From: Marsupella aquatica
Lineage: Eukaryota > Plantae > Marchantiophyta
Length of the DNA: 64,000 nucleotides
Direction: 5' to 3'
Assembly: GCA_973895155.1 (NCBI GenBank)
Contig: OZ316893.1
Location: 18,976,857 to 19,040,856 of the forward strand
The notes under the pieces are model-generated. The model was not told the origin of the DNA. It did no database searches and was given only the letters and a program-made list of their open reading frames with translations. Both the position numbers and the translations under genes were made by a program. Within the stretch, counting starts at the first letter, position 1. Each line of letters begins with the position of its first letter. Shown here piece by piece: positions 27,584 to 62,200 of this stretch.

Positions 27584-27723
27584 GTAGATTCACAGTCACA
27601 CCCCACGCAGCAGGAAACAACAATCACTTCAACTGCGACCAACCATGACAAGATGAGTTAGTTCAAGGATCACATTTATTACAAAATTGTGTTTTATACA
27701 AAAATATGAGGGACTCCTACTCC

Positions 27724-33900: not shown

Positions 33901-35367
33901 AGCACATAACGCGCGGGAAGTTCACTCCGCAATGGTCGCAAAAAGTGGGCAACACTGAAAGGAAAACCCTACGTAAAACCCCGAACACTCCACCCCTCAC
34001 GTTCTAAGTTCAATGACAATGGCGAAAACTCCAAAGAGACTCCCAAAGTGAAGTTTAGTGCCTGAAACCGAATTAGGGGAAGCCACTCAGCCTTACCGTT
34101 TGAGTGAGCCGTTGAGTGTCACCCAAAGTGGGACAAAGCTACAAAGTGTTACTGCATGGCCAACTTAGGCAATGAATGGTCATATTTGCACATACATGGT
34201 CGGTAGTGATATTTTATTGCACGCCGTAATCAGGATTAAGGTTGCCCAACATTATATCCGGTCCTAAAATGCAATATTCCCGGTGCAAGAATGTGACCTA
34301 GCTCTAATGTATGAAAAAGGACCGGTACAAATCTACCTTTGTGCATCTTGACCTTTTATAGATGGATTTAGTAATGGCCAAGAATATCTTGACCGTCCCT
34401 CCATGGTCCAACCTCCATGAACCCCACTTCATTAAACCCAAAACCTTTTTGGTCACAAATAAGGAAATTTAATGAGTTATGCCCCTTGCTATCACCCTCT
34501 TTATAGATTTATTTTTTTGTTTGAAATTTTACATTTATTCCGCGTGAACCCCACGGATGGGGGAACCAGTAGGCCAAATGGCATCATAAAACCTCAACAC
34601 CCAAAGGAGGCAATAACAAAGAGTTACTCAACCAGGGTCATCAGATCAGGCAAAGATTGCGAAGCCGTTCTTCTAGTGGTCCATGCAACAAGTAACAACT
34701 AGGGAATAAGCACTAGAAGGCGCAGTAGGTCAGCATAGTGTAAGTGTAAAGTGTCAAAGCATTGTCTAGTACTAAATTAATCCACCTGATTAGTAAGAAG
34801 GGGGTGTATACTGTAATGGGAAAAAGAAAAAAAAACCAAGGCATGAGCAAGGGCCACCAAGAGTGGTGCAGCTATAAGCTATAGGGATTGAACACAATGC
34901 GGGGGGGCAGTGGCACTATGTATGAGGAAATCACGGGAGTATCGGTGTCAAATGAGTCGACAAAACTCCCAGATAGCCACACAGTATAAATCAATCTCAC
35001 AGAAGGCTGCCATCAATGGAGGAAACAATTTGACACGACCCACATCTGAGAGTGTGAATTCGCTCGATCTCTAGCAGTTCTTTGGCACTCGATAGACGTC
35101 GGTGCTTTCGGCTCAAAGATGAAGGAGAATTACCCCTCCTCAACATAGAGTGAACATTACCCATGATGTGCTAGACTATTCACCCTTCACAAAGTAGCAA
35201 GGTTACTTCTCATAGTCTTTTAGTGAACCATAAAACTCTCATAGTCTTTTCTAGTCTTCAACAAAACCGGTGCAATGGGTGCGAGTCGTTTTAAGTATGG
35301 AAAAAGGACTTAGTGGGCATAGTCCTATAAGGTATGGTCTAAATTGCCCCGGTTTCTACTAGTGTAT

Positions 35368-37445: not shown

Positions 37446-40200
37446 TGTAACGCCGATGACATGGTCCTTATTCTATAATCTGAGTAACTAGGCTGTTGTA
37501 TGCAAGGAGTAGCTATTGATATTGCATAACAATTAGCAGGCTGGCAAGAATAAGGGCAATCATGGCGTTAAGAGTAGGGATAAATGTATTTCAACTTGAA
37601 GACTGCACAACCAAGGCAGACACAATTGAGGTAGTCACTATCAAGGCCACAAAGGAGAAACTGGGGAAGAGAGGATTCAGCTCTTCAAGCATACCATCTT
37701 CTTGACAAGCAAGATGGAGCATGGAGGCTCTTCAAGACGCCGGTACGGAGGTAGGCGTGGTAATTCAAGGAAGCGAGTCTCCATAGCTGAATATGAAGTT
37801 GTGGGGTATGGTGATTGTGCTCAGGATGAAATCTAAATGTCTTGGGTGTGTAGCTTCATTTTGTTAGTTAGGTTAGTGGTTCATAGTCTAGTCTTAGAAT
37901 GTTAGGGAAATAAAAGGCTATATCACGGGTGGTCGACGACCATATCTCATTCAATACGTCACCAAATCCAGATCTATAAAGAGCATTGGAAAGATCTGGT
38001 CAAGGCGAGTAAAATCAATATAAAACACTTGGGAAACAAAGGTGTATTAAGAAAGATACGACCTTATTAGTGTGACGGGTTAACTTGTGGCTGGAATGAG
38101 CGGATTCGGCTTCGGTTTCGGGTTACCCTAAGCTGAGGCCACAGCTTAGCTCAGGTCAGCTCGGCTTCAGCTTAGCTCAGGTCAGCTCGGCTTCAGCTTA
38201 GCTCAGGTCAACACAGCTTCAGCTTAGCTTAGGTTAACACGGCTTCAGCTTAGCTCAGGTCAGCACAGCTTCAGCTTAGCTCAGGTTAACACGGCTTCAG
38301 GTTAGGCTTAACCTGAACCCGGGTTAGATTGAGCCCGGGTTAGACAGAACTTCGGTTAGCCTAAGCTCGGGTTCGGGCTCAGCTTAGCCTAGGTTAGCGG
38401 ATAGCGGGTAGCAGCCTAACCCGAGACCACGGGTTAGCTCTAGTCGGGCTAGATAGGATAGCTAGGTTAGCTAAACTCAGATTAGCTATGTAACTCGGGT
38501 TAACGCAGTGGTGAGTACCCCCTCTTGGTTACGGGGGTATAACTTTCTGTGTATTTGACCAAATCGGCTATAATTGACCTCGTTGGAAAGAGGAGCTCAA
38601 GCCGCTTCCAACGCTGCTATCAACGCAGCAAATGGTTGAATAGGGAAATCGGGAGAGGAGGCGCAAGCTCACAAAAACCATGGAAGAGGGCCAAATCCGA
38701 AGTACATAGTCAATTTGAGATAGAAATAAAGTTGCGAGTTAGGGTTCAGTAGTTAGAGATAGTGGCGGCTCTATTAGGGCTGGGATGGGGCTCCAGCAGC
38801 GTAGTATCCACCCATTTGGGCTCAGTATGAGAGTATATAGAGCAGCCCCCCGGTAGAGGCAGGGGGACTTCAGTTGTGTGATCTCACGTAGACTAAGCAA
38901 CAGGGAGGAGCTCTGTGCAAGGAAGGCTGGACTTGGAAGCTGTGTGTTGGGGAGAGCTTGGTTGTGCTATTACTCAGGGAGTAATTAGCCACGCTTCACA
39001 GCAACAATTGGCCAGGTTTGCAAGCTGGATTGTGGCTCTTTCTAGTAGGCAACACAATTGGGTTCTTTTCCCCCGATATAGAGCCTTGGTGATAGGTGAT
39101 GTGTTGGTGATTGTAAACTATAGGGAGGATTTCAATAAAATTTGCGGTGAGCACATTAGGAAGGCTGAGACACTAATTGAGGGGCAGCAGGAGGAGCATT
39201 TACAGTTCAGTCTGGCAAGGCTACGTGATCCATGGGGAGTCCCGGCCTTTGTCTGGTAGAGAGCACTAAGGGATTTATGGCCAGAGCTGAGCTTGTAGGG
39301 CAAGCATGAGGCCGGGCCTTCTTGTAGTCTGGGGTAGATCGCCGTTAGGCCCGGTACCAGCTTTGAAGTCGAGTCAACTGTGCATGTGTAACTTGACATT
39401 CTGAAATGTAGGTGTGAGATCTGTGCGTGCCCCCAAGAATGAAGTGCAGTGAAGGAGGTTGAATTCAGGATTGAGTTTGCAAGGCAAGTACGGGATTGGT
39501 TCGAGTACAATCTGCCGTCACAATCTGGAGTGAGCCGGGCTCAGGTTCAGGATTGAGCTTGCATGGCAAGCACAAGGCTTGCAGGGCAAGCACGTCCCAA
39601 TCTGGAGGAGACAACCTTCGGGCCTATTGTTCGGATCAAGTATTCTCAGTGAACTATTGTGCACATCTTTGAATCTAATTGACTTTTCCTCTCAGGCCTC
39701 ATTTCTCTCATGGATGTGTGTGTGTGTGAGGCAATCTGAGTGTATGATGGGACTAGCAACGCCACTGAGAGGTGTACCGGGTGCATTGAAGTGGGTTGGG
39801 TGAGGGCTGTAATAGCTCTGATTGCTGAGAGTGGAATGGCAGAGTGGTGGGGCAATGGCTTAGAAGTCCCTAAGCCGGGAATCAATCATGAGTCACTGGT
39901 TTATGGGTACATTCCCGTGGCCCTATGAGGAAACACATGGGGCAAATCCCTGCCCATTGGATCCGAGGGAGGGAAGATCTTTGAACAAAGAAAATGTAAC
40001 TAATGAAACCTATATAAAAATCCTCAAATCTTGATTTTATAATTATCTCAAGGATATCAAGTATTGTCAAAATGTGTTTTTTTCTAAATAACAAGACAAA
40101 TTTTTATTGTTTCAAAAATAATAACAAGGGGTACTAGACGGGGGTCCGTTCACAGGGGGTAGAGATTTTTTACTGGGAGTAGGGGCCTAGGGTACGAGCA
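37446..40200 (+). mobile_element. Gypsy-type LTR fragment (possibly composite) inserted into the copia integrase
   Basis: Begins TGTAACGCC. TATATAGAGCAGCCCCCCGGTAGAGG at about 38834-38859. Possible LTR end CCGTCACA at 39522. Copia resumes at about 40208 (DYSYMKVFGCDAYV). There is no clean TSD and the right boundary is approximate. Confidence 0.65.
38142..38297. repeat. 26-bp tandem repeat x6 (CAGCTTAGCTCAGGTCAGCTCGGCTT)
   Basis: Six contiguous units. Units 3-4 and 5-6 alternate as a dimer. Degenerate GGGTTAG/GCTTAG-rich sequence continues to about 38500. Confidence 0.92.
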
Positions 40201-40523: not shown

Positions 40524-43500
40524 CACTAGTAGAAACCGGGGTAATTTAGACCATACCTTATAGGACTAAGCCCACTAAGTCCTTCTTCCATACTTTAAAT
40601 GACTTGCACCCATTGCCAAGGTTTTGTTAAAGACTATAAAAGACTTTGAGTGTTTTCCGGTTTAGTTAAAGACTATGAAAAGTAACCTTGCTACTTTGTG
40701 AAGGGTGAACACTCTAGGACATCATGGGTTTTGTTCTTGGAATCACTCTAAAGGTCCACACAAAGACTAGTATAAGACAAAGTCTTACAAGGGTTCATGA
40801 TAAGAGTATACTTAAGAAGGACCGCGCGACATCCTACTTTTGGGCCTAAGTGCTTAAGGACATGCCTTGTATATATCACCAACCTTAACTAACATTGCAC
40901 CATAAATATCCATGTAACGGGTACTTTTCATAACTTAGGGTACAACTGTACTGGAGGGCTTAGGGTGGTTTCTAACCAGAACCGGAACTAATGCATCACT
41001 ATAACCCTAGCTAGGTACAACTCCCACACCATGATATATTCCGCATTGCCAACTAGTGTTGTTTTGACAGGGTCATGGGCACTAATTGACACAATGAACA
41101 GTCCACAACTTGATTGATTTGAGTGTAAATGATGGTGCCTTTTGATCCAAGATTAATTCCACAAGGGGGGGGGGGGAGGGTTAGGGGGGCCCACAACTAA
41201 TTAAGTGGCCATGACTTTGTCACCAAAGGGATTTATTTAAAGTTATCCTTAACCCTCTTTAGTTTTGTGTGTTGCCTAACACTCTGGCGCAAACGTACTT
41301 ATTATGCTCAACGGGTCACCTCAACGGAAACGAGCTTACATGACTGCTTGCACTAAGTATTGGGTTAGGGTGAGTGTGCTTTGGTCATCAGGTGATTATT
41401 GGGTTTTTGTGAAGGGAACTATCGAGTACTTGCGCCCATGTGTTCGGGCCCCATTGTGCGACAGAACATTGTGCTTTGCTTCTATGAGTGGAGCATACGA
41501 GTAGGGTTTAGGGTTAACATTTTGCGAGGGAAGCTGGGAGGCGATTGTAGTCAATTGTTGCCATCCACTCCTGCGAGCGCTTTTGACAGTTCTACCTGCA
41601 TGCCCCTTACAATTGTTTGGACAAAGGAGTTCAGTAAGTGGTTTGCGCTGGTTTGGGACCTTGACAGTCGTGAGGTGGTAAGGACATTGAGGCATCCCTG
41701 AGAAGCGCTTGATGGTAAGGACATTGAGGTGTTGGAGACATTGAGGCGTTGCGGACATTGCCTTAGAGGCTCTTGAGGCCAGTGACAGCTTTTGGCGCGA
41801 AGGCAAGCGGAGATTTGTCTCCTGCCTGAGAGCTGACAGCTTCGGATTGAGACAACGTGGGCGCACCAAGATTCAGAGAAGACTGACTGGCTGGGACCGA
41901 CCGGTCTTGGGAAGTTGCAGCCGTGGAGGGACCGGGAGCGCTAAGGTACATTGCAGCTACGAGCAGCAATGCACCTGCCATAGTGACATTGAACTGCCCT
42001 GAATCACCCTGGTTAGTCCAAACTTCCATTTGCAAGTTAGTTTTGGTAGTGGCTTTGGTTTTCTAGGCGGAATGAGCTCCGATGCCATGCATTAAGAATG
42101 TGGGAAATGCTATTTTGTAGCTTGCTACCTCATAGTGCTAATTTCAACTTCAGGTTTGCGTGGTTTTGGGCGATAAGCTTGTGGCTCATTCGGACTGAGT
42201 GACCTTCCTGCGGGCCCTGCCCTAAGTGTTCACACTTCTCGCCGTCCCAAACTGCGAAAGGCTTCTCCCCATTCTGTATCCCTGCTTCAGTAATTGTATT
42301 GAGGTCTTTCAATCAGTCTCATAGGGGAGGTCATTGTCTTCTCTGTAAGTTGTTGCTCCTATCGCACTACCAAGCTTGTTGAAGGGAGCTACTATCGCGA
42401 GCTGCTACCATTGCGAGCTACTACCACCGCAAGTTGTTGAGGAGAGGGCCAATTGTTTGCGAAAGGATTTCCAGATTGTGTCGGAGGTCCAGATTTCTTG
42501 CTTGTGGGTCCCCATGTTTGCAGTTTTTTCCTGGCTTCTTGCGCAGTGCTCCGACGTAGTACCCATGATGCTAGTCTGAACGGATTCATGAGTTGTGACT
42601 GATTTGCTGTTCAAATGATGTCTTCAACTAGAGCTACAATTAGTGTCTGTGGAGCTACCAACCAGGTCCAGGTGTGATTGAGGTCAGTTCAACTGTTGGG
42701 TTGCCCGAATGTTCCGTTGCCATCATTTGTAACCACGAGCAATGGACTTTAGAGGCGGGATTTTCTAGGGATTTCTGCTCAACCCTTTGCTGGCTTTCTA
42801 CTTTGAGGTCTATTTTGGGGTTCGGGCAAAGGGCGGAGGGCAAAGATCAAGCATTGCAGTTTTGCTAACGCTGCATGGTGGAAATTGGACCAGCCAACTC
42901 CTTGTCTACGGTGTTGTGGAGCTGGGCGAGCTGCGACAAGGGACCAAGCCAGGTGACCTGTGAATCAAAGCCCATTGACCGCTGCTGAAGGTTTGATGTT
43001 CTATATTTGAAGCTCTCGTTTGCTTTCTATTTGTCAGTCTTTCACAGCTGCGCATTAGTGTTGGCCCTATCCTCCGTCCCTCTGCTGGCCTGCTACTGAC
43101 ATTTGGTTAATCATAGTTGTTCACTGCTGTGCATTAGTGTTGGCCCTATCCTTCGTCCCTCTGCTAGCCTGCTACATTTGGTTAATCAAAATGCAATGTC
43201 TGTCTGAGTGAGCTGATCATCTCCAATGTAGTATGGGCTTGGGATTTACATATATGTTTCCTGCTTCCAGCAGATAGGCAATTGCTTCCAAGCTCTTTGG
43301 TGCAGACGTCTCTATGGAATGCAATGCCCTATATGCCAGAGCTTTCATATATTGGCATGTTCACATTTGCTCTTGGAATATATGATCCCGAAAGCTTCAT
43401 GAGCAGTTTATGTTCAGAATTCTGTTTATGTTATTGTTTCCGTCAATTGCAGCTTGGATTTTTGAATATATGTCCTGTCATTGATGATAGAGGGTGGTTG

Positions 43501-44729
43501 AGATTGGTTTTCTTTCTTCTTGGTAGTGGGTCAGTGTGTTGGCATTTTCCTCATGTCACTCATTCTCATCGGACGAGCTGCGGATTGGTACTGAATAGTC
43601 ATTTAGCCTATTGCTGCCTCCCACCGCCATTGCCGATTGCCGCTATCATCGTGTATTGCTTGCTTGCTTGCCACTGCCTTTGTTGGTTGCCACCCTCTTC
43701 ACACTCTCTCGCATCTATCTTCCGATATGAATGCGCAGCCAAGCCCAGCAAAAGCTCTGTCCCTACAATCCCTCCCAAATCAACTTCCTTGTTTCTTGCT
43801 GCTCATGATCACCGCATTGTTCTTCCCTATTTTTGTTTACTTATTGGTCTCTCCACACTTGTTGCTTCACATGACTATTTTGCTCCTCCCTGGATCCGAA
43901 CATGCCTTGTGCCCAATGCTCCCACGGTGGAGTGGGGTGGTGAATAGACGACCTCAACACCATTGCAATCACATTTGGATGGGTTAGTTTTTTGCAGCTT
44001 AAACCTGTCGGGATTTTGCGCTTGTGGCGACGCTATCCTTTCTGCCACTTCATGAGTTTGTTTATGCTGCAGTGGGCGGTCTTGCGCAACTCAATGAGCC
44101 AATTTCATTTTCCCTGTGCACTTCTATTTCTCAAAGAATTCCCTGGTCATGCTCATTTGCCCCAGAGTTAGAAAACAAAGAAGAAGAAGAGCTGACTAAT
44201 TGTAATTCCAATCCATATCCTAATCGGTCAAGGATTGTGAACTACATTGGCCTTGTCATTGGCCGAGGTCACCAAATTTTGCTTGGTTTCATTCCTGTGG
44301 AGCACTGTTGTGATGGATGAATAGTTGTCGTAGCATTCTGCAAACTCTCACGGTTTGCTTATGGCCATTATTTGCAATTTGCTGCTACTAATATGTCTCC
44401 GACTGAGCAGCATACACCGGAAGTAAGCAATAGTGGAGGTTTAACTACACATCAACACATCCAGTGAACTACCTCTCTGCTGCTCACTGGAGGGTGAGAC
44501 TTTCACTCTTTCTGGATATTGTAGTTTGTAAGCAAGTTGATTAGGAGTGTTTCATGCTATGTTTACATTGTGACCCCTAGCTGGAACCAATGGAATGACA
44601 CAGTGAGTGGGAACTGATAATTTAAGGTTGGTTGCTGTTGGTGAGGCAAGTACAGCTCCTGCTCACCTTGCTGATCGAAGGTGCTTATCAGAGGACGTGA
44701 ACACACGACACTCCACAAAAGCAACACTT

Positions 44730-45179
44730 ATGGTGAGGACCCGCAATGCTGAACATGTGCGGCTTGCACGCAAGGCAGAGATGTTGCACCTTGAGTATGT
44801 CAGACTTGGGATCCTTCCAGCCCAGTCTGCATGGTACTTTGAGTACCCAGTTGTTGCCAGGAATAACTACAGTCGCCCTATACCTGCTTCTCCACCCTTC
44901 CCAACATCCTTGGTATTTTTGTCTTTCGTACATGACCCGCCACAAATTAGGGCCCAAGGGTGTGTGCACAATTGCCAGTATGACTGTCCTGCCTGTAGGG
45001 CTTCTGGCCTAGAGTTGGATGACCGTTCTCTTGGATGTCGGTTTTTTCATAGAGCATAGTGTATCATCTGGAACCACTCGCCATCCTGTAGTGTGCCTGG
45101 CGATGTCACTTGTCCTGCCCTCCCAGACCCCACCACCGGTCACTTTGGTGTCTACACATGTTTGGATCACACGTTGTAG
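44730..45179 (+). pseudogene. Cys/His-rich hypothetical ORF, copy 2 (premature stop at 45057-45059)
   Basis: Homologous to 30520-30969, with a Gln codon replaced by TAG. Confidence 0.4.
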
Positions 45180-45848
45180 AAGACCACTTGTCACACCGCA
45201 TGCACAGACCAGAGACCATTGACCTATAACTTAACACTTTGACTTGAACAGAGAGGATATTTACTTAAGATTTTGAATTATGAGCAATTTTGGGTCCAGG
45301 GTTTACGGTCAACAGTACATAACTTATCCTATTATGGCTGCACTAAGTACAATATCCTAATTTAAGAGGCTAGCAAGCTCACTTAAAAGTCTCCTTTCAA
45401 AGACTGGAATTAATGGGCCATGTGATAACCTGGAAAAAGTGATTTATGCCTAACTTATTTGTCTTATTCACTATCATAGCCTATTTAGGATGTATAAATT
45501 ACAACCCTGATCACACTGCTTGATACCAATCCTGTTCAAAAAATGCCTGTTTTACATGTCACGACTGTTATATGTGATTCAAATGCATTAAATCTTGTTG
45601 CAGATCTCCTTTGGTGAATCATAGCCACAAAATTGAGGTGTAGGTGGAGCTATTGTACGAGGGGATCAGTTTTTAGTGTGGGCTCAACAAACCAAAAAGT
45701 ATATCTACTCTGCACATGTGTGTGAACATTTCATTGCAGTAGCAATTGCCACTCTAGTCTATATGCTACACTGTACTTTTTGTACACTACACTAAATTGT
45801 ATTGTCTGTGCACTCTGCTAAATTGTACTGTCTATCTCAGGCGTAGGC

Positions 45849-46529
45849 ATGGCACGCCCTAAAATCCGAGCCAAGAAGCGGGAGACAGAGGTGAGCAACA
45901 CAGGTGTAGTTGGGCCAGATGGTATTAACTTCTCTGCAAGTCAGATTTTCCAGAAGGCAGCTCATTGTTGTGCCATTTGTGACGATGGTGGTGGCTTAGC
46001 CATATGTGAGGGCCCTTGCATGAGGCATTTCCACCTCAACCCGGAGTCTGACCTTGCTGCAGAAAACAACTGTCCAGGGGTGGGCCTCCCGTCAGCACAC
46101 CAGGGAGGCTGGATGTGCACTGATTGTTTGGAGAAGCAGGCTAAGTGTGCACAGTGTGGGAAGTTGGGGTCTTATGAGGGCTCTGTTGATGCTCCACCAC
46201 TTGTTAGGAAATGCCCTGACAGATATTGTGTGAGGTTCTTTTGTTTTTCATGTTTGCCCGATCTTGCCACAGCTTGCCCACTTCATAAGTGCAAGGCATG
46301 TGGTCAGCACGATGAAGATTTCTGGGTGGACATAGTCCACTGTGTTAGGTGTCCCACCATGTGGCACTTTCATTGTTTGAAGGAGCGTCAAGCAGAAGGC
46401 TATGCTTGTGACAGACACATCTATGATCACTCTGCACATGGTGTTGATCGATGGATCTTCTATTGTCATCGCCATGCCATAGATCCTACTTTGCACACTC
46501 CCATGAGAGATCACATTTCTTGGCTTTGA
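45849..46529 (+). CDS. EDM2-like composite PHD-finger protein (CACTA cargo), copy 2
   Basis: 226 aa, with 4 amino-acid differences from copy 1 and all Cys retained. The N-terminus MARPKIRAKKR is NLS-like. Confidence 0.85.
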   Translation: MARPKIRAKKRETEVSNTGVVGPDGINFSASQIFQKAAHCCAICDDGGGLAICEGPCMRHFHLNPESDLAAENNCPGVGLPSAHQGGWMCTDCLEKQAKCAQCGKLGSYEGSVDAPPLVRKCPDRYCVRFFCFSCLPDLATACPLHKCKACGQHDEDFWVDIVHCVRCPTMWHFHCLKERQAEGYACDRHIYDHSAHGVDRWIFYCHRHAIDPTLHTPMRDHISWL

Positions 46530-47127
46530 ACCTGAATAATGTACATGCATAGTGCACCTGATGTGGATACCTTGGAGATTGCAGACATTCCAATTTTGAG
46601 AAGAAGGACCTCTGTAGGAGAGGATGCTTAGGCAACAAGTACCCTAAGTTCATTACTTGTTCCTGGGTACATGCCTTCAAAAACTCCCCTTAAGCCTTCT
46701 AGGAACTTTTTTAACTCTGCAATCATTTTGATCACGACTTACATGACACTGCTTAAATTAAATCAGGACTTCTCATTATGAGCATATAAGTTACAAGGCT
46801 ATTTAATTTGCGAGAATTCCCTTAAAGTGTACCAACATTTTGTATTGTCATTGAATGTCTGCCCATTTACAACATCTGTATGTGGCATCACAAAACAATT
46901 GCACTTGTCACCTTCAATATTGTGAAGGCACATATTCAAACTATGAGGTGCATGCTTGCAGGTGTCTAGTACGTTTGTCCCAATATTTCTCCCGTTTGGA
47001 ATCGGAGCAGAGACTCACCAGACGACTGGACTGGACCAAGTTATAAATGCAGCATTTTAAGGGCCCTTCGATTATCAGGTGAACGCATTATCTTCCGGTC
47101 TGCAGTGATTAGGTGGCCCGTGTGTAC

Positions 47128-47976
47128 ATGGCCTCTAGGAAACGTACAAAGGTTGACCACCCGCCTCTGTTGGCTGGAATCAAAGCCATTTTGATTCCTG
47201 ACCACTATGGGTTCACCCAAGTGAGTTGGCCAATCGTACAAAAACGATTCTCAGAGTTCCATGGGACTGAAGTCAAGGACATCACTCCACAGACTACACA
47301 TGTTGTTGCGGGGACATGGCTGGATGTGATGAACAAGTGGTCATGGTCCTTCATTGATTCTGCCATTACCAACCAAGGTCTAAAAGTAGTTGAAGTCTCT
47401 TGGCTGACCGATTCTGTTAAACATAGGTGTGTACAGAGTACTGAGCAATATGAGTTGTGGGAGAGTGAGGAGGCCACTGCAGAGGCTTTGGCTGAAAAGG
47501 AAGCCTATGAAGCAGCGGCAGAGAAACCCAACTTTGCTTCTGTCCAATATGGACCTGTTGTCAACATAGGACACCATCCTATGCGTGCAGATGCTATATT
47601 GAATGAGCATGGCAAGGAGAGAAATACCATTATGAAGGGGTTCAGTGTGGTATTTGCAGAAGAAGGAATTGGGGAGACTAAGTGCAGATTGTACAAGTCT
47701 ATAGTTGTTGAGCTAGGTGGGACAGTGGAGGAGAGTCTAACAGAAACCTCCACTCATGTTGTAGGTCTGTCATACATGAAAATATGCAGAAAATTCTTTA
47801 AGACAACAGTGCATGATTTTGTCATGAACAACAATCTTTGGGTGCTTTCCCCTGATTGGCTTCTAGAATCAGCAGCTAGAGGGAAGCGACAGAATGCTTG
47901 GGACTTTGATATTTTTGAGGCCTGGCCCTCCAAGATTCAGCGGAGATGTATGCTTAGCAAAGGTGGGAGAGAGTGA
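47128..47976 (+). CDS. Tandem BRCT-domain protein (CACTA cargo), copy 2
   Basis: Intact, with 2 amino-acid differences from copy 1. First ATG at 47128. Confidence 0.85.
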   Translation: MASRKRTKVDHPPLLAGIKAILIPDHYGFTQVSWPIVQKRFSEFHGTEVKDITPQTTHVVAGTWLDVMNKWSWSFIDSAITNQGLKVVEVSWLTDSVKHRCVQSTEQYELWESEEATAEALAEKEAYEAAAEKPNFASVQYGPVVNIGHHPMRADAILNEHGKERNTIMKGFSVVFAEEGIGETKCRLYKSIVVELGGTVEESLTETSTHVVGLSYMKICRKFFKTTVHDFVMNNNLWVLSPDWLLESAARGKRQNAWDFDIFEAWPSKIQRRCMLSKGGRE

Positions 47977-48116
47977 GGAGTAGGAGTCCCTCATATTTTT
48001 ATATAAATCACAATTTTGTAATAAATGTGATCCTTGAACTAACTCATCTTGTCATGGTTGGTCGTAGTTGAAGTGATTGTTGTTTCCTGCTGCGTGGGGT
48101 GTGACTGTGAATCTAC

Positions 48117-48686
48117 TTGCTGGGCTCTGTTTGGCTGAAGACTTTGGTGGGTATGCTGCCTCTTCCAGACCGTCAGGCCCTATGTAGGGTCCTCCTATGG
48201 GTTGCATCGTGCATGGCTACTGCTTGGGCTTACTTGTGTGGATTGGTAACCAGACAGAGTGTAGCTCCATCCGAGATAATGCCTGCAGACCTTGGATGTG
48301 TTGTGAATGCTGTGGTGAATGAGGATGCACAGTCGGAAGAGGACATTTACTTTTCAGCAGATGAGTTAGACAAGCACGATGCTGTAGGTGGTTCCTTGTT
48401 GCCTGATTTGGCAAATGATATAGTTCTTACACATGTCTGGCCGAGGGTTCTTGTGGTGTCTGGCGCACAAGATATCTGCAAATATAGACTAATTAGTACC
48501 CAGTGGAGGGACTTGGTAGCAACATGTGCACCATGGAGGGCACTACTGCCACTGCTTGTAGGCACGGATCGAAGACCACCATGGCATGAGCAGGGTTTAG
48601 ACCTTGATGACTTAATGTACATGCCTGAGTACCTCAGGGCTGAGTGGCATCGACAACAGGATTGGTATCCGTATTTGATGTGGTAG
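48117..48686 (+). CDS. F-box-domain protein (CACTA cargo), copy 2
   Basis: LLPDLANDIVLTHVWPRV...KYRLISTQWRDLV, with 3 amino-acid differences from copy 1. First ATG at 48153. Confidence 0.65.
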   Translation: MLGSVWLKTLVGMLPLPDRQALCRVLLWVASCMATAWAYLCGLVTRQSVAPSEIMPADLGCVVNAVVNEDAQSEEDIYFSADELDKHDAVGGSLLPDLANDIVLTHVWPRVLVVSGAQDICKYRLISTQWRDLVATCAPWRALLPLLVGTDRRPPWHEQGLDLDDLMYMPEYLRAEWHRQQDWYPYLMW

Positions 48687-49012
48687 TAAGATGAGGACAT
48701 CTCACACCGGTCTCGCACCTGGCACCTGTGTCTATGACTATACATGATTGGACTCTGATATGGTCATGGATGTACGTGCAAAGGCAGTACATGTGAGGAC
48801 AGCGGAGGAGTTGACACCCTCAAACATTTAGGAATTTTGTCTCATTCACTTGAGAATAGGTACATGACTCAGGCACCTATATTTTTTGTTTTTTTGTTTT
48901 TTTGGAACGTTATGTATTTTGGCAAGTACAGTCGGGGGTGAAATCCTTAACAAGAAGTGTATTTTTCACTTGCATAATAAAATGACAGGGTGCTGAGTGC
49001 GTGTGTATAGTG

Positions 49013-52000
49013 ATGGCTCCAAGGTTGCCTCTTCACAACCCATTTAGGATTAGGCATCATGATTCTAAATTATGGATGCGTGAACAAGCCCGGGCCGCCC
49101 AAGGTAGGAGTAGGAGGATGAGATGCCCATGCACACAGTGCCAAGGATTCAAGTCGTTGAGTTTGAACACTGTGCACCTTCACCTGCTGCGGCATGAAAG
49201 GCACCCTCGGTGGAGGGTTTGGAATGTACCAGCAGAAGAAGACTCCTCTGATGAAGAGTGGAGAGCTGACTTTGTGGATTCTAATACAGCTAGGCGTAGA
49301 GACTACGTAGAGCAGGACATAGACTGTGCAGAGGATGGTCCTGGGGTCCAACATGAGAACGTGGATGACCAAGATGGAGATGTAGAGGCAGTCACTGAGG
49401 ACGGTGGGATGGATGTCCCAAGAATGGTTCAAGAGATTTTTGAAGACCTTGATGCTTTTTACGACACAGTGGAATCAGAAAAGGACAATGAACCGCAGCC
49501 ACACATTGGCGACGGCCAAGCTGAACCTGACTTTGACATTGGGGAAGGTGCAGCAGAGAGGGAGTGGGTGTTTGGGGGCCCAAAACACATCAAAGAAGCT
49601 TGCATTCCTATCTACGAGGGGTCGAACTGCTCCAAGCTGGGTTTTGTCGTGTTGTTGTTGAACATCTGTGGCAATCACAATGTTCCCAATATATTTGTGA
49701 CAGAGTTGTTGACCTTCCTGCGCCGAAATGTGTTACCAGATGGTAATTCAATTCCAAAAAATATGTACGAGGCTAGGAAATTGATGTCTAACCTTGGGCT
49801 GAACTATGTGTCTATTGACGCATGCCCTGATGGGTGTGTTCTCTTTCGCAAAGAGCATGCAGATAAATTGACATGCCCTCATTGTGGTAAGCACAGGTAC
49901 AAGAATGTAGGGAAATGTACACACCCTGCCAAGGTTCTTCGTCATTTTCCTCTCATTCCTAGACTACAACGTCTGTTTAGATGCCCTGCCATTTCCAAGC
50001 TGATGACATGGACTCCTGATAACAAGAGCAGTGATGGCCTGCAGCGTCACATTGGAGATTCCAACCATTGGAAATTTGTTGATGAGAGGTGGCCACAGTT
50101 TGCTGCAGAGAAGCGGAACTTTCGATTTGGTCTATCACTGGATGGAGTAAACCCATTTGGAGACAAAAACAACCGTTATTCATGTTGGCCGGTTACGCTG
50201 CTAAATTACAACCTTCCCCCATGGATGACTACAAAGAGGTTTTTTGTCATGATGGTGCTGTTAATCCCTGGACCAGCTTGTGTGACCGAGCAATTCATAG
50301 ATATCATGTTGGCTCCAGCAGTGGAAGAGTGGAAGACTTTGTGGATAGAAGGGGTGTTAACCCATGATGTTCTGAAGGGGCTTCTTCGACCCAGCCCCTT
50401 TAGACTGCATGCAATTTGTTTGCTGGATATAGCAGATTACCCAGGCCATGGCATCATATCTGGACGAGTGACAAAGGGCTATGTGGGGTGCACACCATGT
50501 GGGAAAAATGTGACAAGTGAGTGGTCGCATGCCCTGCACAGTATGAAATTTCAGGGGCATAGAAGGTATCTGCTTGTTGATCATCCTTACAGGCACACAC
50601 GGTCTCAAATTGCACACTTCAACAACAAAACAGAGCTTCGTGGCCCACCACAGAGGATCACCAGAGAGCAAGTCCTGAGGTGGGCAGCCAGGAAGGCTGA
50701 TTGGGACAAGAGAAGTGCCACTGATCGAGAACCTGAGGATCCAGTGGTGAAACACGGTGTGAAAAGACAGACCTTGATGGACTTGGAGTTGGAGTACTGG
50801 AGGGTAATGTACTTAGCCTCCAGCCCCTGTATGATTGCAATTTTAGATTGGAGCAATGGTGGATTGATGTTGGTTACAATCCTCCTATGTGGTTAATTAG
50901 TGTTTCTGTTGTTGAATTCTTTGCTTTGTGGAGTGCAGGAATTCGAGCCCAACAAACACAATGTGGACGTCATGCACATTGAGAAAAATATTTGTGAGAG
51001 CTTGCTGAAGTTCTTGTCGGGTGAGAAAGATACAGGAGCAGTTCGAGCTGATATGCAACAGAAGGGGATTCGCCCTCACCTTTGGTTGAAGCCCCATGCA
51101 AGCAATCCCAATGTACTTCTCAAGTTCCAAGCTCCCTATGTGTGCACACAGGATGAATGGAAGACATTCTTGTATAGATTGAGCTGTCTGAAAGTGCCCT
51201 CTAGCTATGCTGGTGCCTTCAAGAAGCATATTACAAAGAATAAACTTGGCAGTATGAAAACACATGACTACCATGTGTTGATGCAGCACATTCTGCCCCT
51301 ATGCCTCAGAGGTCTCATGCAGAAACCAGTCCGTAATGTCATTCTTCGACTGTGCAATGTATTTCGCCGTATATGTGTGAAAGTGTGGGATCCCCAAGGA
51401 TTGGAGCAGTTGAAGCAGGATGCTGCTTATGTCCTTTGTGACTTGGAGATATACTCCCCCCTGCTTTCTTTGATGTTATGACTCATCTCCTAATCCATGT
51501 GGTAGAAGAGCTAGGGCAGTATGGGCCAGTCAGTACCAGATGGATGTACCCTATGGAGCGATACATGAAGTTGTTGAAAGGTCATGTGAGAACATACTAC
51601 AGGCCAAAGGCTTCCATGGCATTGGGGTACATTAAGGATGAGACGTTGGGATTCCTAACAGAGTACATGGCTGGGTCTGGTGAAGCTATGACAAGAGTTT
51701 GGAAATCTGGTGAAGATGATGGAGTGAGTGGCGAGGTTGTTGAAGGTGTGGGACGTGCTGTTCAACTGCCTGTTGCGATTCGAGACAAGGCTCATTCATA
51801 TGTGCTGGCAAACACAGAGCCTATGCAACCATGGTGGAGGTGAGTGATTGAATTGACTTGCCTTTGTTGTGATGCTTCTTGTCTGTTCCAAGGGTGATCT
51901 TAGGTTGTCATGTGTTGTTTAGACCTAACTATGCCTGTACCTCATATTGCAGGGAATATGATATGCAAAAAGCTGCACACTCTGGGTAGCAGGATCCCTT

Positions 52001-52712
52001 CCCACAGTTCGAGAAGTGGATTCGGGTGACAATTCGAGAGCATAGTAGACATCACCCAGATATGGAGAAGGATTTGTATCTTCTATCTGTGCCACCATGA
52101 TTGTCTATTCTGACCTACAAACGGATGAGAGCTTATGGAAATCATTATCGAGTGAGGGATGAGCAGGGTGACCATTGTGTATCATATGATTGTGGTTTGA
52201 TTTCTGTGTTTGAGCAGAGAACCTCTGAAGAACAGAGGGGGTGGATGAAGATGGGTTACGTGGGGGAGTTGACCGACATTTGGGTGTTGAATTATGGTAA
52301 CACAAGTGTCCCAGTGATATTGATGAAGGGATCATGGGTGAAATCAGAGTGGCAGAGACCAAGGGCCACCATGAAGCGTGATCATGATGGGTTCTTGTTG
52401 GCCAATTTTAGGTCCAGAGTACCAGAATGGTCTGAGCCTTTTGTTTTCCCTAGCCAAGTTGAACAGGCTTTCTTTGCAGATGTGGAGGAGTCACATGGCT
52501 GGAGGGTGGTATGCCATAGCCAAGCACGGAACAGGCGGATGGATGGAAGTAAAGTAGAGTTCAGTTTGGATGACCATGCTGCATTCGAGCATCCTAGTCA
52601 TGAGACTGTACTTCCAACTCGGGCAGGGACTGACTACATCCCCTTAACATTGAGAGAGACATATGATGAACCTGGGCAAATGGAATATGATGAGGTTGAT
52701 GATTTGCAATAG
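49013..52712 (+). pseudogene. tnpD: CACTA TnpD DDE transposase, copy 2 (introns about 50804-50938 and 51840-51952)
   Basis: Same domains as copy 1. GT-AG introns rejoin the frame. There is a 1-bp deletion near 51455 (FPPAFF motif) and stops at 51987 and 52098. Confidence 0.93.
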
Positions 52713-52889
52713 GCAACAGCTGGCGATTGGCAAGTATGAGGTTGAGGATGACTACCTGCACAGAGTCACAGAACGGGAATTGCTGCCTGGAATGATGTTT
52801 AGGATAGTTGGATATGCATGAAATTGATTGATACTTTGAATTTAGTGTGCTGATTCTCCCTGTTTGGTTGTGGGTGCTGTGCAGAAGCT

Positions 52890-55800
52890 ATGGGGGAAGA
52901 GGGTGATGACATGGAGACAGACATGGGGCTTGGAGAGTGGGGTGAAGAGGAAAGATTGGATATGGATGGAGACCCAGATGCAGGGGGCTCACAGAAAAAT
53001 GCACCTGTGCAAGATGCACAGGGCCCTCATCAAGTCCCAGGTAGGTGGGCAGCTAGAGAGAAATCACATAATCCATACCCTAGAAGGAGCCAGAGTTATT
53101 GGCAAGGGACGCCTGATAATTATGATGATGACTATGATGGAGCAGAAGATGGATGGGATGAATATGAACACCCAGAGCGTGGTAGAGACGGGTACAGAGG
53201 GCAATGGAAAGGTGAGGAGGATGATTGGACAAGTAAGTGCCTTGTGCTAGTGATTTTGTGATGGTAGTAGAGATTTAGCTCAATATGCACTTATCTGATG
53301 TGTAGCTAGGGCAAAGAGTTTATCTTACAGGTCCATGAGTGTGGCATGTACCTGTTGGTATGCAGACTCTGATTGGGACAATCACGAAAACAACAAAGGC
53401 CATCCACGTTCAGATAGGAGGCAATCATTCACAGGCGGGAGAAACGCCCCTAATTCATCAAGACAAAGCAATAGGACAGGTGGTCCAGAACCATCTATGC
53501 GCTAAGGGAGAGGTAACTTGGTCATTGCTTGCTCTGAAGTCCACTGTATATTTGGCAGCGGGATTTATGATTCATACTTACCTAATGTAAGTGACTGTAA
53601 ATGGATCCTGTAAATGTGCAGGGACTCCAGGGAGGTTTGGACAATGCAATCCAGGCCGTGGGGGGAGATCAGGCCGTGGAGGGACCCCAGGCCGTGGGGG
53701 GACACCAGGCCATGGAGGGACACCTAGTAGCGCTTCAGGGAGTACCAAGGCAGGAGACAGTAACAAATTTGGTAAAGTAGAAGTGAATTCCGAAGGTTGG
53801 ATAACTCCCACATGTGATGGTAAGAACCGTTGGCATTCTGACCTAAGAGGAGAAGTATTGCGTTGGTTAGATTTGAGCATTATAGAGTTTAGGAGTCAGA
53901 ACAAAGCTGATTGGGCTGCTATCTGCAAGGACATTCTTGAACGGTGGGAGTATGTTGGTAATGATGGTAAGGGCCCAGTTGAAGATTGCATATCAGATTA
54001 TGCAATGAGGATTTTGAAACAAGAGAGGCATAGGTTGAAAAGGATGTGGATAGACAATGGTTCTAACAGGAGAATGCCACCACCCCCATCATTGGAACTG
54101 GATCAATGGACACGGTTAATCAAAGGGTTCATGTCGGAGGCTGGACAGAGCAAGAGTGAACTGATGTCAAATGCTCGAGGCAAAGTGAAACACCTTTCAC
54201 AGGCTGGGAGAGGAAGTTATGCTCCAGTGAAAGAACAATTGGTAAGGCAGTGACATGCCTGATAGTAAGCCTCAAACTTATCATCTTGCTACCATTATTA
54301 CATTTTCATTGACAATCAACACTTGGTTTCATTCATATGTATGTTGATGTGGACTACAGAAGAAATTGACAGGTGAAGAACCATCAGCACAAGAAGTGAG
54401 AGAGGAGTTCATGAAACAAAGGAGTGAGGTGACAAGTGTAACTTCCAAACAGGTGATTATGTTGTAATTCTGTATGTTCTGTGACTATTTGGCCTTGAGC
54501 ATCAGAAAGAAATGTAGTAGGAAGTAAGCAACCAGTTCTTGGGGACAGTTATCTGAGATATGTAAGTTGTGTTATGACAGGGAACTGTTACAACTCTCAT
54601 AGAGATGTGTGAACGGTTGAAGTCATTAGAGTGTGGACTCCCTTGAGTGGAAAGTAAATTGGCTGATCGTTTGGATATTGTGGAGGCATCTGTAGCGAAC
54701 CTTCTTGCATGAGTGGAATCTAATTTCAAGCTTGTGATTGAAAAATTGGGTGGTTCCCAACCAAACAACGAGGGCAACATTGTACAAAGTGTGCCCTTGT
54801 TAACAAAAAAGGGAATTGGCAAATCTGACACAGGTATGGAAATGACACCGGCCCATTGTTCATTGTGTCCTATGTTCAAATGTTAGAAGTAAGTTTTCAT
54901 GAATTGAGTGAATGGTTTGAATGCAGGAAGAGTGGAGGCAGAGAAGGACCCTGTAATCAGTAAGCAGAAGGGCAAGAAGGTTGCTGAGACAGGTAACCTG
55001 CTATGATCCAGTACATTACATTTGAAAAGTGCATGGAGTTTTGTGAAGCTTAAGCCGGTTGGAGGTAATCTTTTCTGTAAGAACTGGTTGGATGAACTGG
55101 GATCTGAAGTGACATCATGATTGATGTATCAGGTGATTCAAAGAGCAATAATGAAGAAGATGTGCCCAGTGCCTCAGTGACCATAGCCAAGGAGGTATCA
55201 GGTAAGCTGATGCTTTAAATTCCTCTATATGAATGTTGAGAAACAATTCAGTGGTTAATAGATTCAACTTGAATATTGTGGTGTGTTTATTGATCAACAG
55301 AAGCAGACATGGAGCATATGGCAATGGCAAAGAAGGGGAAGAAGGCTGTTCATAATGGTAAGGAGATAGTGACAACTTTGTGGTTGGTGACATGTACATT
55401 TAGCACATGTGATGAGTGATTGACTTATGTTGGACATGACACTGAATTGTAGTTGATGCAGAGTTGACAGACTCTCAACCAAGTGGGAGCAGGGTGAAGC
55501 GACGTCGAAACTTGGGAGCAACATTGGATGCAAGTAAGATTGTAGATGCTTCAATTGAAGCAAGTACAATGTTGGCAGATACTGAGATGATGTCACAGAG
55601 AAATCCTGCTACACAATCAGAAGTGTCAAATATGGATGCAGATTCTTTGAAGAAGAGTGTAGCCAATTCTCGATCACCAGCACAAAACACTCGTGCCAAA
55701 GTCATGACTCGCAACCAAGGTATGAATAATGTCATGTATAAGCCACCCAGGAAAGCCAAGAAAAACAGCCAGGGTAAGGTGGAGGTGATAGCCACAGCAG

Positions 55801-56057
55801 AGCCAGTCCATAATCTTCTATCATGGGAGGATGACTCGCAGGTATGTGTGGGTACAGGCATTTTGCGACCGGATCATGCAAAATTCCATGGCAAAGTGGT
55901 CCCGGATGACCATGTAGTAGTGTTGTTGACTACAGTGATTGTATCTGATTGTAATTTGCCATTTCCGAATAGAGACGATGATCCACCTCAGGAAATAATT
56001 GCAGATGCAGTAGGATCTCTTGTGCTTTGGCCATCAGAGTGTGTTAGTCTGCAGTGA
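52890..56057 (+). pseudogene. tnpA: CACTA TnpA-like multi-exon gene, copy 2
   Basis: Acidic N-terminal exon, RGG-repeat plus Transposase_24-like exon (about 53620-54241) and Tnp1-like last exon. Stops near 53503, 54644 and 54710. Confidence 0.75.
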
Positions 56058-56888
56058 CTGAATGCAAGTGTAGATAGAATCATGTGAATTGTGTCACATT
56101 TTGACATTGCCTTGGAAAGATCCAAGAAATATCTGTACCAATTTTTCCATTTGGTAAAGAGGATGAAGGAGCCGTTGTGTGTGACATTGATATTTCTGAA
56201 TTCTGTATGTATGAAACAAGTGATTGATGTCAAACTATGGCTCTATGGTGATTGTCTATGATATTTGAATATGTTTTGTATCATTTCAGTATTAGTGTGT
56301 ATGGTATAGAGGAATACTTTGTGACCTTCTTTGTAGTCTATGAAGTTTGAATCTGTGAATTCATATTAGTGTACATGGTATAGAAGATGGCTTTCTGAAA
56401 CTATGTATTCTAATGTTAACATGATGAATGGTGAACTTATAGAGTGAGTTCATTCCAAGTACACAATAACACATGAATGCAATATGTTATTTGTGCACAA
56501 GAGTGGGTTCATTCCAAGTAGTATAGTGGGGTCTTCATCACTCATATCCAGTTGACATGAAAGACTTATACATACCCCACAAAGTATATTTAAAGACTAC
56601 CCTCCATAATCTTTTTAGTCGTTCCCAACGACTTACCATCTCAGCCCATAAAAGACTGAAAACGACTCACCAAAGCTACCCACACAAAGACTAAAATAGA
56701 CTAAAAATCCAGTCTATTAAACGACTTATAAACCAGTTCTATAAAGGACTCAGTTGATTATAGTAACAAAACATACGACTCGCAGTCCTATAAAGGACTG
56801 GAGTCCTTCCCAGTCGTTTCCAAGTCCTACACGGTACTGAATAGTCATTTAATGGGGTCTAAATACCCCCCGGTTTCTACTAGTGGGA

Positions 56889-58902: not shown

Positions 58903-58904
58903 TT

Positions 58905-59238
58905 TGTTAAAGATTGCTCTTAGTCTTGTGACTCATAGATTACGACACTTAGGCTAACCATAGGTACGGTCTTAGCTGAGGTTAGGTTAGTCGTGTGTGA
59001 CCTTGTATATACCAGGGCTAGTGTAAGCCGTTGGGGTGTAGTGCTTGTTCATTGTAATGAAGCAACTTGAGGAAGAGAGAGAGCCTACAGTGTGTTCGAC
59101 TACTCTAAAGTAAAGTTGTTGTGTTCATGTAGACGTAGCCTTGGAGAAGAGGTGAACCACGTATGGATTGTGTCGACTATGTGAGCATGTGATGAGTCAT
59201 GATTGTATCGTTATGAAGAAAAATGTCATAGTTCAACA
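58905..59238 (+). repeat. Copia 3' LTR
   Basis: TGTTAAAG...TTCAACA, a direct repeat of 16753-17086. Confidence 0.95.
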
Positions 59239-62200
59239 ACTTTTGTCAATTTATTTGAGGCACTTAGAAGTCTCAAAAAAGTTTGAAACTCATATAGATT
59301 ATACGTAGTAGAGTACCCTAGAAAAGTTTTGTTTCATTCAAACAATTAGTTTAGAAGTTAAAATTAGGATAAGATCACTGTTTATTACTGCAAACACTGA
59401 TTCTTTGCAAAGCGTCCGACCCAAATCTTGACGCTTCTTGAAGCGTCCGCTACATTTTTTATGCTTTTGAGACATCCATTTCCAGCACTTTACTTTTTCC
59501 ATCTCTTCTAAGATTATCTTTTAGATATTCAAGGTTTGAAAAGTCATGTTTCTTCAGTTCCTTTTTGTGTTAGAATTCTCCACCTATAAGATCCATTTGT
59601 TTACCAGTTCCAGGGGGGACAAAACTTTATTCAATAATCAAAATTTTGGATAGTTTTCCACCTTCCATTTTAACAAGAAGGTCTAAGTGTATGGAAGTAA
59701 ATCATGTGTTATGATGTGTGAATGAATTCAGGAGATTCCTTTTGGTGACTAAATTTTAATCACAAGCTTTTGAGATTCCCATCGAATTCAGTGTTAGGCT
59801 TGCTTGCTGTGTCAAGAATCACTAGCTAATTTGAGGATAGATGTTTGCATTAAAAGAGCAAAATTCCATCTTCACAGTATCATAGTACCATTGTTTTACT
59901 TTGGTATATGTATTAGAGTTTGATTTGAATTGCGTATCGCTGATAATCAAACCATGTTGACGGCATTTTAATATATATCTTAGTAAAACCAACCAGAAAT
60001 GTATTGTGAATTTGGTGAGCAAAAGAAACCTTTATTTCACATCTTATGATTCCAAAAGGAAAGAGAGAGTCTGGTTTGATAATTTTAATCCTGCCTATAC
60101 TAAGACCATAGTCCTTTCTAAACGAGTCGCAATAGCAAATTGAAACAAATCTATTTGCAGAATAGACTTCCTTTTGATTTCATAACTCAAAAATTATCTT
60201 TTCCCTATGTTTTTGTTAATTTTATCTTTATTTGAGATTGATAGTTTTAGAGCAAGAGCTCTAAGCTACTCAAATATGTTAATTCAGTCAATCTATTTCC
60301 AACTTGTTCTTTAAGGGACCAAATTCTGAGTTTATAAAAATATTTGTTACTTTGTGTTCTTTCGGCCATACGACAACATAGGTTTGGATAGAACCTTTAA
60401 AGGGAAGAGTAAGAATTGTATGGAATGTGGAGTTTGCAATTGTGAACTGTTAAGAAAAACCCTACAATCTTAGAATGAAGAGTAATTTGCAAGTTATGTG
60501 GTAATAGGGAGGCCCAAAGTAGTGGGACATGAAAGAACCCGCTTTTGTTTGGTCCTTTAAATTCAAGTGCATTCCATTTGGGCTACAAAATGCACCAAGT
60601 GAATGCAAACACATGATTGAAAGATGGACGAGAGTTATTGAGAAAAAAAAATTAGAAATTGAGGAATGTACCACAATGGGTTTATAAATCCTCTTTGAAG
60701 AATTATTGATTGAAAGTTAGATGAGATTTAACCTTCAATCCAAGTGACAGGCAGGGCCTGCAACCAGTGAGAGTCGGACCAATGTCTCAAGTAATTGCAC
60801 AAGTTGACACTATCTGATTGTCAGAAAGGCCAGGTAGCAAGTGAAAAGTGCACAAGAAATCAATTGAATTGAGGCGGTACAATGTCTAATTGATACGAGA
60901 AAGGACATTAATGAAAATTGAAGTTATGTTGGATAATTAATTAAAGGATTTGACTAATAGTCAACTTCAAGGGTTAACACTCATTTTAGTAGCAGTTGGG
61001 CTTTGCTTGTCGCCTTGTGCATTTTGTATCTCTAGAAAGATACAAAATTGCATGGCAAGTTTTTAGTTGCCTTTCAATTTGATGATCATTGATTACACCA
61101 ATAGAACAATGTTCAGTTGAGTCCGGATCCACATTTCTTTGAGAATTACTTTGGGATTGGACATGGTGGCCTAGTTTTGGAATTGCTAGTGCCAGATTCA
61201 AAATTGTGTGAAGCTCTTTTGGATCTGGCATGGTGGCTCCGGTTTGGGATTCCAACTCGCTTCTTTCGTCGATGGCGTGCCATTTGGAAGCATTCAAATT
61301 TTTGAGGGCTGCGTCTTTGGTTGGCATCGGGATTACTTGTTTTGAGAATTGTAGTGTTCTCGTTGACAAAACATTGGGTCCGGTATGACATGCATCTTAA
61401 TTGGGTAAGGTGGCTCTGTTCGGGAATTACCTATGTGCTCCAACATGCATCAGCTGGAGCATTCAAATCTCTCGCACACGGTACCATTTGACAATAGTAT
61501 GGAAGTTGTTTAGGATTTGAAAGATTGGCAGAACTCCCCCGTGATATCTCTGCTATAGAAACTCTCAGGTTGGTGACATTTACATGCATGCTTTTCTTAT
61601 TGTAATAACCACCCTCACTACATTTGAAGAGGATATTCACGTCGGATCTGTAATCAGGGTTGTTTTAGGTTTTTGTATATGTAGAAAGAGCCTCGTTCTT
61701 GTGCTCACACTAGTGGAAATCAAGCAGGAATAAGGATGATTGAGAAGTTCTTTGGAAGACATGAATGCGAGGGTTATATATTTGATTGGGAAATGGTCGA
61801 TCCAATGTGTTTTGGGTGCTGTTACTCACAAGGGTACAGCCATCCGCAGAACATAATAACAAGGGATGAACAGAGATCCATATGCTCAATCACATCGCTT
61901 ATCAGATTGCGCTAGTTTTGTATAGTTGGCTGTAGAAGGCTGCCAATCTGATGATCTAATTGCTTGGATCAATCACTCAACGGGTCAAGAAACTTTCACT
62001 TTCTGGATATGCTCAGGAGCGATGTTGAACACCAAACGGCAAAGTCCTTGTGTGCGACAACTGATTTGGCCTCCTATGTCAATTGCTACACTTTGGTTGA
62101 CTATGTCAATGACTAAAATATGCCAAAGGATAAGGCAATTTTGGTTGCGTTACTTCTTGAGTTCAGAGAACATGTCGATTAGGCTATTCATGCAGCCCAG

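Follow-up and report, generated by a model that had tools for sequence, protein, structure and literature searches.

A 64-kb stretch of the genome of the liverwort Marsupella aquatica (64,000 nt of contig OZ316893.1, referred to here in its full length as the window) contains two complete CACTA transposons, copies A and B, and in both of them four open reading frames (ORFs) precede the transposase gene. One of these encodes a stand-alone composite PHD finger that is identified by homology, motif and phylogeny as a member of an old and distinct family of EDM2-type readers of about 220 aa, and which we term mini-EDM2. The other three encode a Cys/His-rich protein (ORF1), a two-BRCT protein and an F-box-like protein. 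The PHD, BRCT and F-box-like ORFs have very probably been kept by selection on the element. We assign a probability of roughly 0.45 to the reading that mini-EDM2 is an element-encoded heterochromatin reader, which would aid the expression of methylated copies, either by recruiting the pathway of the host ASI1-AIPP1-EDM2 (AAE) complex or in competition with it.

An earlier note on this DNA, made from the sequence, had described four compact, co-oriented ORFs 5′ of the transposase gene TnpD in both copies, and they were found at the positions given in Table 1. In copy B the order is ORF1, PHD, BRCT and F-box-like, followed by the Transposase_21 ORF at 49013, all on the plus strand, and the order and orientation of the cassette genes are identical in copy A. 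Each of the four has its own start and stop codon, as the note stated, with the qualification that ORF1 of copy B, the copy flagged there, is truncated (109 versus 149 aa). The basic N-termini ascribed to two of the ORFs proved to be those of the PHD and BRCT proteins, both of which start with a basic stretch. When the 4.9-kb segment was resampled 1000 times under a first-order Markov model, the chance of an ORF of at least 109 aa was 19%, falling to 2.1% for at least 149 aa, 0.5% for at least 177 aa and 0% for at least 226 aa.

The PHD ORF is assigned to the EDM2 type by its homology to EDM2, since its three Pfam matches, all to NSD-type PHD fingers, lie below the cut-off; a search of the PDB likewise returned relatives of the NSD type only. 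The window protein is 31–35% identical to EDM2 and EDM2-like proteins over about 210 aa, and this homology, together with an EDM2-type tail, confirms and refines the composite PHD finger that the note had recognized. A near-length protein search gave five full-length homologs of 217–245 aa among 95 candidates (81, 75, 57, 40 and 37% identical). In their alignment 53 columns are invariant, four of the five homologs share the last residue, and starts and stops are largely common. A profile search of 1.84 billion representatives yielded 547 proteins, of which 150 were listed and 10 clusters were looked up by name. Short family members occupy seven of the first nine rows and are followed by long proteins, named EDM2 in flowering plants or PHD proteins of Marchantia, Riccia and Calypogeia; none of the named proteins in the 10 clusters is closer than about 35% to the window PHD. 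Judged by eye, seven of the roughly 15 short members among the matches listed run into unrelated sequence, which could reflect decaying transposon copies or assembly error.

The family is further marked by a middle motif in the second finger, with Cys for His and a short spacer, that was present in 14 of 157 proteins, all of 245 aa or less. The EDM2/NSD form of this motif occurred in 118 of the 157, and no protein contained both forms. The EDM2-type tail was seen in 10 of the 14 proteins with the family motif, in 94 of the 118 with the EDM2/NSD form and in none of five other NSD-type proteins. A careful tree was built from a choice of 32 rows out of 145 hits, without fragments and without most of the redundant EDM2 rows, and with a guessed outgroup label. 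In it all 11 stand-alone rows fall on one side of a branch with support of 99/99, as sister to EDM2 plus the liverwort-type paralogs. The PHD-only length of the protein and its placement outside the EDM2 clade speak against an EDM2 ortholog. A separate clade (99/99) is formed by EDM2-like proteins of 620–770 aa that end soon after the PHD (P0015, P0018, P0020, P0027 and P0032), three of which are named from the liverworts Calypogeia, Riccia and Marchantia. A metagenome scan of 221 stretches gave nine loci, eight EDM2-like of plant type and one unrelated PHD protein, with no transposase ORF seen near them among frames of at least 120 aa. Short EDM2-like PHD proteins of about 270–380 aa also occur on plant-type transcript contigs (L001 and L003–L007), and their middle motif differs from that of the transposon clade.

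The two BRCT domains of the note's tandem BRCT were borne out. Pfam BRCT matches two stretches of the ORF (E 8.6e-15; 55.2 bits against a cut-off of 21.3), and the two halves are alike at E 3e-7. One full-length homolog was found among 696 candidates, 61% identical over 95% and with a shared start. A phosphopeptide-binding tandem of the BRCA1/MDC1 type would call for a short linker, a packed pair and a phosphate pocket; the linker here is about 50 aa long, matches in the PDB are weak (ligase IV, E 0.007; BRCA1, E 0.05), no donor is named, and an AlphaFold model with a predicted local distance difference test (pLDDT) score of 32 was too poor for fold comparison. A likeness of the second BRCT to those of X-family polymerases is not claimed here, the only such match being TdT at E 0.31.

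The F-box assignment is weak: a faint motif and homologs are present, and all scores lie below the curated Pfam cut-off (E 0.095 in the window ORF and 0.001–0.08 in the homologs). The window ORF and two of the three homologs score 13.1–19.3 bits against a cut-off of 20.5, and the third homolog matches F-box-like only. These homologs, found among 103 candidates, are 51–55% identical, with the strongest conservation in the motif and the C-terminal part; as regards a substrate-binding domain, only about 45 residues remain after the motif. Structure-library matches are weak (FBXW11 and FBXL5, E 0.6–0.7), and the AlphaFold model (pLDDT 42) was again too poor for fold comparison.

Part of the cassette was present in 11 of 13 listed sequencing runs (nine studies); none of the 13 is recorded as RNA, so that they say nothing on expression. 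Contigs from the runs of four organisms, placed on copy B, covered 30, 30, 30 and 28 of 30 bins, with each ORF region included. Deletion variants without part of ORF1 or without most of the cassette also occur among the runs. Summed contig depth in runs X1 and X3 is about as high over the cassette as over the transposase, and in run X7 it peaks on coding parts; contig depth is not copy number, the runs were found using the cassette, and these depths are given no weight.

ORF1 in copy B has a stop at codon 110, which shortens its Cys/His-rich part; the frame equivalent to that of copy A would reach 45179. Ten synonymous and seven nonsynonymous changes separate the copies over the 149 codons, a ratio of nonsynonymous to synonymous rates (dN/dS) of 0.21–0.30 (P 0.002–0.012 without multiple-testing correction, nine regions or frames having been tested besides the shorter ORF1 version). 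In the other two frames P is 0.22–0.98, i.e. the synonymous excess is confined to the frame of ORF1 itself, and we find modest support for ORF1 as a real gene. No relatives were found in Pfam, the Atlas (recognition 1430) or the PDB, no homolog search of protein databases having been made, and comparison with the PHD profile gave a probability of 0.3%.

The ORF1 region is 3.8% divergent between the copies, compared with 0.5–0.9% for the PHD, BRCT and F-box-like ORFs and for the region of the transposase, and the 5′ 3.3 kb is swapped; the 5′ half of the element is therefore modular. Such modularity agrees with an alternative in which the ORFs are selected accessory genes that are functionally unrelated, were acquired at different times and form no single system, and so do the deletion variants and the unequal homolog counts (PHD 5, BRCT 1, F-box-like 3). 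Under the same alternative, some of the ORFs would serve as decoys, would titrate readers, repair proteins or SKP1 of the host, or would help through small-RNA camouflage. The identical gene order and orientation in both copies and the coverage of every ORF region in four organisms argue against it, and we regard it as unlikely, with or without decoys.

The homologs of the PHD (37–81%), BRCT (61%) and F-box-like (51–55%) proteins, with their largely shared starts and stops, agree with the claim of the earlier note that these are not fresh, broken captures. Its phrase 'long-domesticated accessory genes' is apt as to age and conservation at full length, but 'domesticated' is the wrong word, because here host-type domains are carried by a transposon. 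Recent neutral capture is unlikely in view of the old PHD clade, the BRCT and F-box-like homologs and the synonymous excess in ORF1. The ORFs might nevertheless be neutral passengers in the style of Pack-CACTA, in which case the element would have acquired copies of short host genes from a family not yet sampled and multiplied them along with itself. A near-identical host donor gene could exist, the distant homologs (from Logan) come without genomic context, and the changes between A and B in three of the ORFs look neutral. However, the ORFs are whole and intronless, and four of eight EDM2-like grass-type loci that were fetched have frame breaks resembling introns inside the PHD domain, as read by eye. 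The distance of the nearest named proteins (at most about 35% identity across the 10 clusters) and the excess in ORF1 (10 versus 7) in its own frame only also stand against neutrality, and we consider this alternative quite unlikely.

Differences between the copies at C/G sites, counted as transitions, affect 24 of 397 CG, 60 of 1083 CHG and 31 of 4286 CHH sites (H being A, C or T). This eightfold excess at CG and CHG sites is taken as the footprint of CG and CHG methylation on the element. In Arabidopsis, CHG methylation is coupled to dimethylation of histone H3 at lysine 9 (H3K9me2) (PMC3632883). H3K9me2 is the mark to which the PHD fingers of EDM2 bind, and the AAE complex promotes transcription at full length where introns contain heterochromatin (PMC7472560; PMC7529245; PMC9292364; PMC10241880). 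By analogy, mini-EDM2 would bind H3K9me2-type chromatin on the methylated copies of its own element and, once bound, would help these copies to give transcripts of full length, a task that host EDM2 performs at heterochromatic introns. It might do so by bringing in the ASI1/AIPP1 machinery, or else by keeping silencing readers off the mark. As mini-EDM2 lacks the N-terminal RFD-like domain and the long C-terminal part, it would act purely as a reader or adaptor. Going by the names of their domains, the BRCT protein would probably couple the intermediates of transposition with DNA repair, and the F-box-like protein may interact with SCF (SKP1-cullin-F-box) complexes. In its widest form the proposal is of an old CACTA lineage with its own miniature EDM2, which would read H3K9me2 and hijack or compete with AAE, joined by a BRCT protein as repair adaptor, a mimic of F-box proteins and a Cys/His protein in a virus-like host-manipulation cassette that counters silencing through histone reading and not DNA binding. 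We offer this wider form tentatively, as on balance doubtful.

A reader without an effector domain also fits tethering. The PHD protein could be a targeting module that holds the transpososome to heterochromatin and sends new copies into other repeats, with the BRCT protein aiding end repair. Chromodomains target chromoviruses in a similar manner. Both copies, with different target-site duplications (TSDs), do sit in one older copia-type element, but two insertions are too few to count as a sample, selection against insertion into genes would lead to nesting as well, and the PHD is a separate ORF, unfused to the transposase. We judge targeting to be rather unlikely.

Several observations weigh against mini-EDM2 as a reader that supports expression of methylated copies. 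The stand-alone clade is the sister of the EDM2 group on a long stem and is not nested within it, so that descent from EDM2 itself lacks support; a quick tree of 49 rows gave the same split with support of just 85–90, and long branches may have misplaced the clade. The acidic residue preceding the first Cys in AIRE, which we take to read unmodified H3K4, aligns to His in the window PHD, and the mark specificity may therefore differ from that of EDM2. Among the contigs listed, none joins the cassette to a transposase in another organism, and linkage outside this window, also that of the distant homologs, is putative. Comparison of dN/dS between the two copies is uninformative for the three ORFs other than ORF1, which have only 4–6 differing sites each (nonsynonymous and synonymous: PHD, 4 and 2; BRCT, 2 and 2; F-box-like, 3 and 2). 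In runs X3 and X5 the F-box-like ORF has also lost 43 bp, which shifts its frame. Furthermore, the effects of EDM2 on different transposons are opposite (PMC3632883), and with TnpA an anti-silencer is already present in CACTA elements (bioRxiv 10.64898/2026.08.24.746577).

The two transposons, found by self-comparison of the window, are inverted relative to each other and flanked by a 3-bp TSD each. The termini of both start with CACTAGTAGAAACCGGGG, and their cores (18813–31626 in A against 44065–56885 in B, inverted, 12.8 kb) are 98.7% identical. A segmental inversion was rejected as the origin of the two copies because each has its own target duplication. Beyond the first 214 bp, the 5′ variable regions (3.3–3.5 kb) are unrelated, with a single blastn match of 52 bp (E 0.03), and appear as a swapped module between matching ends and core; both are T-rich on the coding strand. 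Its termini, TSDs and Transposase_21 gene mark the element as a CACTA transposon, with a TnpA-like second gene that is probable and without autonomy in either copy. The older copia-type retroelement in which both copies are nested, about 5.2 kb apart, extends from 16751 to 59239. Its long terminal repeats (LTRs; 16751–17087 and 58903–59239) are 91% identical, a tRNA-Met-type primer site and a polypurine tract are present, and gag, integrase and reverse transcriptase pieces were spotted by eye. A further insertion lies within it near 37450–40160, with 26-nt tandem repeats at 38116–38323. Elsewhere in the window (1908–16133), two repeats of about 1.5 kb lie 11 kb apart in inverted orientation. 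They are 88% identical, enclose gag-like pieces (3241–3753 and 5076–5570) and are possibly head-to-head LTR fragments or a long terminal inverted repeat (TIR) element. Rfam and tRNA scans found nothing. Homology places the host among the land plants.

The transposase contains the C(2)C and H(3–4)H motifs that have been defined for CACTA transposases (PMC12730594), read by eye as CTPC and HLLIH. It is broken in both copies, by a 1-bp frameshift near 51454 in B and by three in-frame stops in A; neither window copy is autonomous, a result that does not extend to other copies of the family. Exon 1 differs between the copies by 12 nonsynonymous and two synonymous changes, as expected of drift after insertion. 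In the probable TnpA-like gene, a weak Transposase_24 match at 53591–54250 (E 0.014) is below the cut-off, and three 18-nt repeats at 53651–53722 encode a Gly/Arg-rich (RGG-like) stretch. By eye, AG acceptor-like sites lie 2–20 nt 5′ of the PHD (45849), BRCT (47128) and TnpD (49013) starts, and the predicted N-terminal extensions of homologs P0003 and P0014 resemble translated intron ends. These are hints that the cassette genes are spliced from a common leader.

Table 1. Features of the two CACTA copies (coordinates are those of the window).
Feature	Position	Strand	Description and basis
CACTA copy A	18813-35364	-	16,552 bp, TSD TAT; TIRs and TSD
CACTA copy B	40524-56885	+	16,362 bp, TSD GGA; TIRs and TSD
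5′ TIR and subterminal region, B	40524-40736	+	short AAAGACT-type repeats; 214-bp match, 89% to A 35152-35365
5′ variable region, B	40737-44064	+	unrelated to A 31627-35151; long ORF 43324-43947, no Pfam match
ORF1, Cys/His-rich, B	44730-45059	+	109 aa, own ATG and stop; truncated allele
ORF1, A	30520-30969	-	149 aa
mini-EDM2, B	45849-46529	+	stand-alone intronless EDM2-type composite PHD finger, 226 aa; homology, motif, tree
mini-EDM2, A	29171-29851	-	matching ORF
Two-BRCT protein, B	47128-47976	+	282 aa; Pfam BRCT, internal repeat
Two-BRCT protein, A	27724-28572	-	matching ORF
F-box-like protein, B	48153-48686	+	177 aa; weak motif, residues ~82-130
F-box-like protein, A	27014-27547	-	matching ORF
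TnpD-type transposase gene, spliced	49013-52712	+	Transposase_21 (Pfam E 5.7e-59), DUF4218, DUF4216
Probable multi-exon TnpA-like gene	52890-56057	+	position and weak Transposase_24; otherwise inference
3′ subterminal repeats and TIR, B	56500-56885	+	repeats and TIR in sequence

In general architecture the window elements resemble plant CACTA/En-Spm transposons that encode TnpD and TnpA, with CACTA termini, a 3-bp TSD, subterminal repeats and a spliced Transposase_21 gene followed by what is probably a TnpA-like gene. They differ in the four extra co-oriented ORFs 5′ of TnpD, in their length of 16 kb and in the swapped 5′ region. Some CACTA elements carry ULP1, a case that our literature search did not retrieve. 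Large CACTA elements with extra ORFs are found in the enlarged En/Spm families of Chondrus crispus, which are 16–20 kb long with 4–5 ORFs (PMC6431247), a likeness of size and of the presence of extra ORFs. Gene capture by Pack-CACTA (PMC13317346) also places host-type sequence between CACTA ends; in contrast, the window ORFs are whole, stand far from named host proteins in sequence and are located on a transposase-coding element.

Mini-EDM2 has in common with EDM2 the composite PHD, the same Cys/His pattern and the C-terminal tail. Unlike EDM2, a protein of 1200–1600 aa, it is 226 aa long, lacks the DNMT1-RFD-like domain and the C-terminal part, has a second finger in which a His ligand is replaced by Cys and the spacer is shorter, and is intronless, transposon-borne and in a separate clade. 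If the reader role holds, it would be a minimal reader of the EDM2 type that occurs naturally. Among DNA transposons, Rehavkus of animals is also known to have a PHD finger, which lies inside a transposase related to that of Mutator-like elements (MULEs) (PMC6446971), whereas here it is a separate ORF in a plant CACTA element; even under a targeting role, a plant DNA transposon that encodes a histone reader as a separate protein would be unusual. In fungi, DNA transposons that include EnSpm carry TET/JBP genes that are proposed to help them to escape silencing (PMC12730594). They too have a host-type chromatin gene aboard, but theirs is a DNA-modifying enzyme, and the gene described here encodes a plant protein of histone-reader type with BRCT and F-box-like neighbours. 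The earlier note knew of no description of such a combination, and none of a PHD, BRCT and F-box cassette on a CACTA element was found in the literature searched, which was mostly open access and exclusive of Repbase. Accessory domains, without names, are mentioned in a survey of 962 structures encoded by Spm, whose main text does not contain the term 'PHD' (bioRxiv 10.64898/2026.08.24.746577).

The anti-silencers known from plant transposons, VANC of VANDAL MULEs and TnpA of Spm, are sequence-specific DNA-binding proteins (PMC6446971; bioRxiv 10.64898/2026.08.24.746577), and TnpA activates without removal of H3K9 methylation (bioRxiv 10.64898/2026.08.24.746577). The strategy of transposon-encoded anti-silencing, as proposed here, would be shared with them. 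Such proteins leave open by what means an element deals with the histone mark as such. Mini-EDM2, unlike these DNA binders, would read histone marks, and a transposon-borne relative of the reader with which the host transcribes H3K9me2 chromatin would, if the proposal is true, be a direct answer.

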